Of a stretch of 2,827 bases of DNA, positions 1-2,827 are shown one piece after another. Under the pieces are notes generated by a model, which did not search any database, was not told the DNA's origin, and saw only the letters and a list, made by a program, of their open reading frames with translations. The position numbers were made by a program, and so were the translations under genes. Source of the stretch: Enterobacteria phage CUS-3; the sequence record FN394986.1. One strand, 5' to 3'. Each line of letters opens with the position of its first letter. Position 1 is the first letter of the stretch.

Positions 1-438
1 ATGGCGCGCCCAACAAAGTATCAAGAGGCGTATGCCGAACAGGCACGCAAACTGTGCTTGCTGGGCTACACCGATGCAGAGCTTGCTGATTTCTTCGAAG
101 TCAGTGAGTCAACTATTAACAAGTGGAAGCTTGATTATCCTGAGTTTTCGGAGTCCATAAAAAAGGGTAAGGCCGTCGCTGATGCAGAAGTTAGTGACCG
201 TCTTTATCAACGCGCTATGGGCTTCGTGGCTCCAGACATCGATATTCGTGTTATTGAAAACAGAATTGTCGAAACTCCTCTTGAGAAGTATTACCCGCCT
301 GATACAACAGCTGCCATCTTCTGGCTTAAGAACCGACAGAAGGATAAATGGCGCGACAAGGTTGATCACGAGCTAACAGGCAAAGACGGCGGCGCAATCC
401 AGATTGAAACATCACCGATGAGTACTCTATTCGGAAAA
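1..438 (+). CDS. Terminase small subunit (P22/Sf6-like), 3' end lost in N-run
   Basis: ATG at 1-3; frame 1 open through 438 and into the Ns; about 47% GC. N-terminal stretch TDAELADFFEVSESTINKWKLDYPEF has the helix-turn-helix pattern typical of small-terminase DNA-binding domains. Visible 146 aa is close to the full length of such proteins. The TGA at 541-543 that closes the track ORF lies beyond the gap and is not a reliable stop. Confidence 0.7.
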
Positions 439-538
439 NNNNNNNNNNNNNNNNNNNNNNNNNNNNNNNNNNNNNNNNNNNNNNNNNNNNNNNNNNNNNN
501 NNNNNNNNNNNNNNNNNNNNNNNNNNNNNNNNNNNNNN
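439..538. other. N-run, exactly 100 nt (conventional unknown-length assembly gap, or mask)
   Basis: Counted directly: Ns from 439 to 538. The flanking genes are not normally adjacent in this phage family. Confidence 0.95.
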
Positions 539-1762
539 TCTGAGCCATGTGTAAAATATTATGATGGCATTCTGTATCTGACGACCAGGGGGACATTAAG
601 TACTCAACCCGGTAGTTCATTGCACAGAAGCTCTGATTTAGGTACATCATGGAATTCTCTTCGCTTCCCAAATAATGTTCATCACTCAAACCTTCCTTTT
701 GCCAAAGTTGGCGATGAGCTGATTATTTTTGGCAGTGAGCGCGCATTTGGTGAGTGGGAAGGAGGAGAACCTGATAACCGTTATGCAGGAAACTATCCAA
801 GAACATTTATGACCAGAGTTAACGTCAATGAGTGGAGTCTGGATAATGTAGAGTGGGTTAATGTTACTGATCAGATTTATCAGGGCGGAATAGTTAACTC
901 TGCGGTTGGTGTTGGTTCAGTTTGTATCAAAGACAACTGGCTGTACTACATTTTCGGTGGGGAAGACTTTCTAAACCCATGGAGCATAGGGGATAACAAC
1001 AGAAAATATCCTTATGTTCACGATGGTCACNNNNNNNNNNNNNNNNNNNNNNNNNNNNNNNNNNNNNNNNNNNNNNNNNNNNNNNNNNNNNNNNNNNNNN
1101 NNNNNNNNNNNNNNNNNNNNNNNNNNNNNNNNNNNNNNNNNNNNNNNNNNNNNNNNNNNNNNNNNNNNNNNNNNNNNNNNNNNNNNNNNNNNNNNNNNNN
1201 NNNNNNNNNNNNNNNNNNNNNNNNNNNNNNNNNNNNNNNNNNNNNNNNNNNNNNNNNNNNNNNNNNNNNNNNNNNNNNNNNNNNNNNNNNNNNNNNNNNN
1301 NNNNNNNNNNNNNNNNNNNNNAGCGGCGGTGAAACAACGTCTTCAGCAGATGGTGCAATGATAACGTTGCATGGTTCCAGAAGCAGTACTCCACGTCGCG
1401 CGGTATATAACGCACTCGAACATCTTTTTGAGAACGGAGATGTTAAACCTTATCTTGATAATGTAAATGCTCTTGGTGGTCCGGGAAACAGGTTCTCGAT
1501 AGTTTATCTTGGCTCCAATCCTGTGGTTACCAGTGACGGAACATTAAAGACAGAGCCGGTCTCTCCTGACGAAACATTGCTGGATGCCTGGGGTGACGTC
1601 AGGTATATCGCTTATAAATGGCTGAACGCTGTCGCTATAAAGGGGGAAGAAGGGGCGAGGATACATCATGGTGTAATCGCGCAGCAACTTCGTGATGTTC
1701 TTATTTCTCACGGACTCATGGAAGAAGAAAGCACAACATGCCGCTATGCCTTTCTTTGCTAT
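539..1762 (+). CDS. Endosialidase-type tailspike (endo-N-acetylneuraminidase), internal and C-terminal fragment; 5' end absent, 3' end lost in N-run
   Basis: Frame 2 open across 539-1030 and 1322-1762 with no stop; the same frame on both sides of the 291-nt N-run. Translation 542-1030 begins EPCVKYYDGILYLTTRGT and contains a sialidase Asp-box SSDLGTSW. Translation 1322-1762 contains a peptidase-S74 chaperone domain. Not in the ORF track because frame 2 lacks a stop. Adjacent to a NeuO-like gene, as in CUS-3-type K1 prophages. Confidence 0.75.
629..652 (+). other. Sialidase Asp-box motif (S-x-D-x-G-x-T/S-W) within tailspike
   Basis: Codons AGC TCT GAT TTA GGT ACA TCA TGG encode SSDLGTSW, matching the bacterial/phage sialidase beta-propeller Asp-box consensus with Ser in place of Thr. 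Confidence 0.6.
1031..1321. other. N-run, 291 nt (97 codons), inside tailspike ORF with reading frame preserved
   Basis: Counted directly. Length is a multiple of 3 and frame 2 is coding on both sides, so this looks like a length-preserving mask or sized gap rather than an arbitrary join. Confidence 0.9.
1532..1762 (+). other. C-terminal intramolecular chaperone domain (peptidase S74) of tailspike, with predicted autoproteolytic Ser|Asp site at 1532-1537
   Basis: Translation VVTSDGTLKTEP...VRYIAYKWLNAVAIKGEEGARIHHGVIAQQLRDVL. Ser (1532-1534), Asp (1535-1537) and Lys at +5 (1547-1549) match the catalytic Ser-Lys dyad spacing of the endosialidase/tail-fibre chaperone domain. The R-x-H-x-G-V-I-A-Q block is characteristic of this family. 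Domain is cut off by the N-run at 1763. Confidence 0.75.
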
Positions 1763-2179
1763 NNNNNNNNNNNNNNNNNNNNNNNNNNNNNNNNNNNNNN
1801 NNNNNNNNNNNNNNNNNNNNNNNNNNNNNNNNNNNNNNNNNNNNNNNNNNNNNNNNNNNNNNNNNNNNNNNNNNNNNNNNNNNNNNNNNNNNNNNNNNNN
1901 NNNNNNNNNNNNNNNNNNNNNNNNNNNNNNNNNNNNNNNNNNNNNNNNNNNNNNNNNNNNNNNNNNNNNNNNNNNNNNNNNNNNNNNNNNNNNNNNNNNN
2001 NNNNNNNNNNNNNNNNNNNNNNNNNNNNNNNNNNNNNNNNNNNNNNNNNNNNNNNNNNNNNNNNNNNNNNNNNNNNNNNNNNNNNNNNNNNNNNNNNNNN
2101 NNNNNNNNNNNNNNNNNNNNNNNNNNNNNNNNNNNNNNNNNNNNNNNNNNNNNNNNNNNNNNNNNNNNNNNNNNNNNNN
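1763..2179. other. N-run, 417 nt; must hide the tailspike 3' end, the intergenic/promoter region and the 5' end of the acetyltransferase gene
   Basis: Counted directly. The chaperone domain is incomplete at 1762, and the acetyltransferase is already coding at 2180. Confidence 0.9.
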
Positions 2180-2827
2180 ATGTTGTTTTCCGTTGATGAT
2201 AATGGGTCAGGTAATGTTTTTGTATGTGGAGATCTTGTAAATAGCAAAGAGAATAAAGTTCAGTTCAATGGAAACAATAACAAACTTATTATAGAAGATG
2301 ATGTTGAGTGTCGATGGCTTACCGTAATATTTAGGGGTGATAATAATTACGTAAGAATACATAAAAACAGTAAGATTAAAGGTGATATTGTCGCAACAAA
2401 AGGTTCAAAAGTTATTATCGGTAGAAGAACGACAATAGGTGCAGGTTTTGAAGTCGTCACTGATAAGTGCAATGTTACAATTGGCCATGACTGCATGATA
2501 GCAAGAGATGTTATTTTGCGTGCATCAGATGGGCATCCTATATTTGATATTCATAGCAAAAAAAGGATTAATTGGGCAAAAGATATCATTATATCTAGTT
2601 ACGTATGGGTAGGGAGAAATGTCTCTATAATGAAAGGAGTATCTGTTGGAAGCGGATCTGTCATTGGGTATGGGAGTATTGTAACTAAAGATGTGCCATC
2701 TATGTGTGCAGCAGCCGGTAATCCAGCAAAAATAATAAAAAGAAATATAATATGGGCAAGAACGGATAAAGCGGAGCTAATTAGTGATGACAAGAGATGC
2801 TCCAGCTATCATGCGAAGCTCACGCAA
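2180..2827 (+). CDS. neuO: Polysialic acid O-acetyltransferase, NeuO-like (hexapeptide-repeat / left-handed beta-helix acyltransferase); 3' end beyond window, true 5' end possibly within upstream Ns
   Basis: ATG at 2180-2182 immediately after the Ns; frame 2 open for 216 codons to the window end with no stop. Hexapeptide repeats are visible: IGRRTTIGAGFEVVTDKCNVTIGHDCMIARDVIL and VWVGRNVSIMKGVSVGSGSVIGYGSIV. About 36% GC, lower than the phage genes. His at codon 119 and Trp at codon 143 (counting from this ATG) match my recollection of the reported NeuO catalytic residues. Sits directly downstream of an endosialidase tailspike, as in prophage CUS-3. Confidence 0.8.
   Translation, partial: MLFSVDDNGSGNVFVCGDLVNSKENKVQFNGNNNKLIIEDDVECRWLTVIFRGDNNYVRIHKNSKIKGDIVATKGSKVIIGRRTTIGAGFEVVTDKCNVTIGHDCMIARDVILRASDGHPIFDIHSKKRINWAKDIIISSYVWVGRNVSIMKGVSVGSGSVIGYGSIVTKDVPSMCAAAGNPAKIIKRNIIWARTDKAELISDDKRCSSYHAKLTQ

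Follow-up and report, generated by a model that had tools for sequence, protein, structure and literature searches.

The small terminase-tailspike junction in a CUS-3 prophage record is a join made by its depositors

The window, that is, the whole stretch of 2827 nucleotides that was analysed (FN394986.1, Enterobacteria phage CUS-3), carries a small terminase gene and the interior of a tailspike gene only 100 N apart. It is almost certainly a curated multi-locus genotyping record of the Escherichia coli K1 prophage CUS-3, belonging to a 'genotype GT_n' series, in which four pieces are joined by runs of N. The apparent break of synteny does not reflect the structure of any genome, and no phage biology follows from the layout of the window. 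It was the depositors who made the join, not an assembler, and a deletion is unsupported. A preliminary description had offered two explanations for the junction, either a scaffold join of two contigs or a real deletion leaving a defective prophage. The first was right in that the join is artificial but mistaken in attributing it to an assembler, as the window is the depositors' four-block typing record; the second finds no support in the evidence presented below.

Four codon-trimmed blocks

Three runs of N, at positions 439-538, 1031-1321 and 1763-2179, divide the window into four sequenced blocks of 438, 492, 441 and 648 bases. The preliminary description had placed a 100-N run exactly at 439-538, where it was indeed found, but had treated it as a lone event, which the two further runs contradict. 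The length of each block is divisible by three, with phase 0, and frame 0 is the sole open frame in every block. The terminase and neuO blocks begin with the ATG and finish with the last sense codon, their stop codons (TGA for the terminase, TAA for neuO) lying just outside. The ends of the blocks were placed by pattern search on the complete CUS-3 genome (CP000711; prophage of E. coli RS218, P22-like, Lederbergvirus), which was used as the reference and where all blocks are on the minus strand. The terminase, tailspike and neuO are on one strand, and their order and orientation in the window are the natural ones; the distance is false only at 439-538.

The first block (1-438, plus strand) is the small terminase open reading frame of 146 codons without its stop, and corresponds to CP000711 22705..22268. 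It matches the CUS-3 small terminase coding sequence (CP000711 22265..22705, minus strand) with 100% identity at both ends. A comparison with PHROG 309, 'terminase small subunit', gave an E-value of 2e-68, the Pfam search of the block returned no family, and other records of the series annotate 1-438 as 'phage terminase small subunit'. The gene had thus been correctly recognised beforehand, but not as to its extent: what had been taken for the 3' end of the gene abutting the gap is the whole reading frame minus the stop.

A likeness to a protein of solved structure was noted in the same block. In a PDB search, residues 109-146, the last 38, proved similar to the C-terminus of gp1, the small terminase of phage Sf6 (3HEF and 4DYC). 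As the likeness is confined to these residues, it suggests that the small terminase may be a mosaic protein, with an N-terminal DNA-binding part unlike that of Sf6 gp1.

The second and third blocks belong to siaK1, which encodes the endosialidase tailspike and has 981 codons; both are 100% identical to the siaK1 gene of CP000711. The second block (539-1030, plus strand; CP000711 4013..3522) comprises codons 487-650 in frame. These codons encode part of the catalytic beta-propeller and match positions 192-355 of 367 of Pfam End_beta_propel (E = 1.6e-104). The following 291 N (1031-1321) stand for codons 651-747 (CP000711 3521..3231). The third block (1322-1762, plus strand; CP000711 3230..2790) comprises codons 748-894 and covers the end of the stalk (Pfam End_tail_spike, 91-160 of 160), followed by the C-terminal intramolecular chaperone (Peptidase_S74, 1-58 of 58). 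The full reference SiaK1 protein has a Pfam Head_binding domain at residues 1-113, which is absent from the window. The earlier statement that the tailspike begins in the middle of a domain and lacks its N-terminal capsid-binding part is therefore accurate: the sequence resumes after the 100 N at codon 487, inside the beta-propeller.

The last run of N (1763-2179) represents 417 bases (CP000711 2789..2373), consisting of the last 264 nucleotides of siaK1, the coding sequence of which ends at CP000711 2526, and the 153-nucleotide intergenic region between siaK1 and neuO, the ATG of which is at 2372..2370. The intergenic region hidden by this run holds the promoter region of neuO. The fourth block (2180-2827, plus strand) is neuO, encoding the polysialic acid O-acetyltransferase, and matches Pfam Hexapep. 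It corresponds to CP000711 2372..2368 (ATGTT) followed by 2234..1592. The previous assignments of the tailspike, upheld by Pfam and by CP000711, and of neuO were likewise correct.

The block ends bear on the idea that an assembler or scaffolder linked two draft contigs and inserted a standard gap. One hundred N is the convention for a gap of unknown size, and the order and orientation of the two flanks relative to each other are correct. However, contig ends would not coincide with an ATG, last sense codons and codon boundaries in all four blocks. The records of other strains also speak against a scaffold join, which is regarded as very improbable.

Records with the same layout

A megablast search against a phage collection retrieved at least 17 GenBank/ENA records (FN394218 and FN394987-FN395002), each of exactly 2827 bases. 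All 17 bear the name Enterobacteria phage CUS-3, come from as many different E. coli K1 strains, and match the window in four pieces with 98.1-100% identity. Their titles announce partial proviral terminase, siaK1 and neuO, together with a genotype designation such as GT_1, GT_4, GT_6 or GT_7; they thus describe partial genes and a genotype, and not whole-genome shotgun (WGS) sequence, which speaks against a scaffold join. The four records that were inspected, GT_1, GT_4, GT_6 and GT_7, carry identical partial coding sequences at 1-438, 539-1030, 1322-1762 and 2180-2827. The three runs of N were confirmed at the coordinates of the window in the public records GT_6 and GT_1.

Independent assemblies would not produce the same coordinates in the four inspected strains' records, nor the same length in 17, which argues further against a scaffolder. 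A WGS scaffold gap was accordingly rejected, as the flanks coincide with codon or CDS boundaries and are identical in the records of other strains.

The possibility was also considered that the N runs result from a pipeline having masked a longer natural sequence. In favour, two of the three runs do have exactly the natural length. Yet the public record GT_6 shows the runs at the same coordinates, the length of the window is that of the record itself (2827), and the 100-N run falls 18,154 bases short of the stretch that it replaces. The probability of masking is considered negligible.

The window is best compared with its sister records, as a member of the same typing series. The series extends from GT_1 to about GT_18, has the same length of 2827 as the window and, in the four records inspected, the same layout of coding sequences. 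The window differs from GT_6 by one base (T/C at 423) and from GT_1 by one base (C/T at 572). These two are the closest, and none of the 17 matches from the phage collection is identical to the window. The window thus probably represents a genotype that the collection lacks; as GT_2 was absent from the genotype names that were seen, it may be the GT_2 entry.

Distances in complete genomes

In CP000711, the flanks of the 100-N run are at 22268 and 4013, and the true gap between them is 18,254 bp. The natural separation of 15-20 kb that had been expected between small terminase and tailspike in P22-like genomes was thus borne out, both in CUS-3 and in UTI89. The stretch that is behind 439-538 encodes the large terminase, portal, scaffold, coat, head completion and ejection proteins, followed by mnt/arc, ant and codons 1-486 of siaK1. 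The 291-N and 417-N runs, in contrast to the 100-N run, equal the distances in CP000711 exactly (291 bp and 417 bp).

The UTI89 chromosome gave the same result. The terminase block ends at position 1746 of the locus and the siaK1 block starts at 20001, again 18,254 bp apart. Blocks 2 to 4 are 100% identical to the window, and the sequence on either side of the 100-N run matches exactly. Genes annotated in this interval encode the large terminase, the portal, a P22-type major capsid protein, the gp4 and gp10 packaged-DNA stabilisation proteins, DNA transfer proteins, Arc-family regulators and Ant.

A gene for a YafO-family type II toxin-antitoxin toxin was observed in the same UTI89 locus at 15434-15853, beside Arc/Mnt-type regulators. 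It has the ejection genes on one side and the tailspike on the other, in the region that is behind the 100-N spacer, and is a possible accessory (moron) gene.

A real deletion would mean that the source strain lost about 18 kb, from the terminase to the middle of siaK1, and kept a defective prophage whose tailspike is truncated, together with neuO. Such losses are not foreign to this group of prophages, since CUS-3-like prophages that have decayed and lost large parts are reported in some strains, among them CE10 and SCU-175 (PMC9659370). Moreover, the record has no sequence across 439-538: only N is found there, and the window contains no continuous sequence over a novel terminase-tailspike junction. 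A deletion would, however, have had to end on the last sense codon of the terminase on the left and on a codon boundary on the right, both exactly. It would have had to give the same 100-N layout in GT_1, GT_4, GT_6 and GT_7, which come from different strains, and it leaves unexplained the two further runs of N of exact reference length. Two complete sequences, CUS-3 and UTI89, which are identical to the window at every block end tested, both keep the full 18,254 bp.

The adjacency was finally sought in 5426 complete E. coli genomes, with a search that joins pieces up to about 1.9 kb apart. The best-ranked places cover only 539-2827, so that none of the 5426 genomes has the two blocks within that distance of each other. 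With codon-exact ends, a layout common to several strains, the interval intact in CUS-3 and UTI89 and no such adjacency in that collection, the proposal of a deletion and a defective prophage is abandoned; its probability is considered minute. Just as improbable is a variant in which the source strain does carry a CUS-3 remnant without the morphogenesis module, a loss that the typing record would hide.

Proposed origin of the join

A typing record assembled by hand remains the preferred reading. That the join was built by people is shown by the trimming to codons, the layout common to different strains, the mixture of spacer lengths and the genotype titles. The features of a hand-built typing record were all found: the layout is reused, the blocks are trimmed to codons, the 100-N spacer does not represent a physical distance, and the titles give genotypes.

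The record was almost certainly prepared as follows. Four pieces, namely the small terminase open reading frame, two internal pieces of siaK1 and neuO, were sequenced separately, cut to whole codons, set in their natural order and orientation, and linked by runs of N. Short gaps, whose length the reference supplied, were filled with their true number of N (291 and 417). For the long one, the approximately 18.25 kb from the terminase to the tailspike, a conventional 100 N was used, so that the spacer at 439-538 has an arbitrary length, 100 N for 18,254 bp. The pieces were presumably separate PCR amplicons. We infer the typing scheme and the design of the amplicons from the records themselves.

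The source of the series is presumed to be, very probably, Mordhorst et al. 2009, Environ Microbiol 11:3154-3165 (doi 10.1111/j.1462-2920.2009.02019.x). This attribution rests on the fit of the strain names (the IMT_ and Delta- series) and of the gene set; the paper is cited in publications on CUS-3 and neuO.

The window resembles MLST-style entries in that short loci of one element are trimmed to frame and concatenated in a fixed layout with allele or genotype numbers. It is unlike the usual MLST-style entries in that the loci are held in one record with N spacers, two of which have their true length. Compared with CP000711, the window has the same gene order and strand and blocks 2 to 4 that are 100% identical. 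It differs from CP000711 in having 100 N for 18,254 bp and in the absence from neuO of a 133-bp AAGACTC tract (19 copies).

As the 100 N are a matter of bookkeeping, they carry no information on how the prophage is organised in the source strain. More generally, typing records in which distant loci are joined by N can pass for contiguous genome sequence. Signs of such records are several runs of N, blocks of whole codons and many records of equal length, and they should be set aside in scans of raw sequence.

The neuO block and its missing repeat

The excision of a repeat was recognised because the first 32 bases of the fourth block, when sought in CP000711, gave no match. In CP000711, neuO begins with ATG TT, continues with 19 copies of AAGACTC (annotated as a poly-psi repeat, 2235..2367, 133 bp), and then reads GTTTTCC. 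The window runs from ATGTT straight into GTTTTCC at 2184/2185. Outside the repeat, neuO is 100% identical to the reference; the AAGACTC tract is gone at this position, with no N to mark its removal.

The variable repeat of neuO sits two nucleotides past the start codon, and 2-93 copies are reported. For neuO to be 'on', the number of copies has to be a multiple of three (PMC3046976; PMC13001214).

With reported natural copy numbers of 2-93 and a tract that is cleanly missing relative to the reference, the in-frame neuO of the window, with zero repeats, is an in-silico construct. A clean excision of the repeat is not the product of an assembler, which again goes against a scaffold join, and its unmarked removal is something that only a person preparing sequences for alignment would do. 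As the repeat was taken out of the record, the window reveals neither the copy number nor the phase of neuO in the source strain. The false results that such a record yields here are a synteny break, gene truncations and a zero-repeat neuO allele, a form that by the published copy numbers is not met in nature.

As a check of consistency, the spans that match 539-2827 were compared in 18 complete sequences. Each is longer than in the window by an exact multiple of 7, from which 8 to 49 AAGACTC copies are calculated. The copy number so obtained was divisible by three (phase on) in 3 of these 18 sequences, those of DSM 30083, MS7163 and W224N. In the RefSeq entry of UTI89, neuO is annotated merely as a 336-nt 'acyltransferase' fragment (22097-22432 of the locus), and CP000711 is annotated without any neuO coding sequence; both annotations seem to stem from the off phase.
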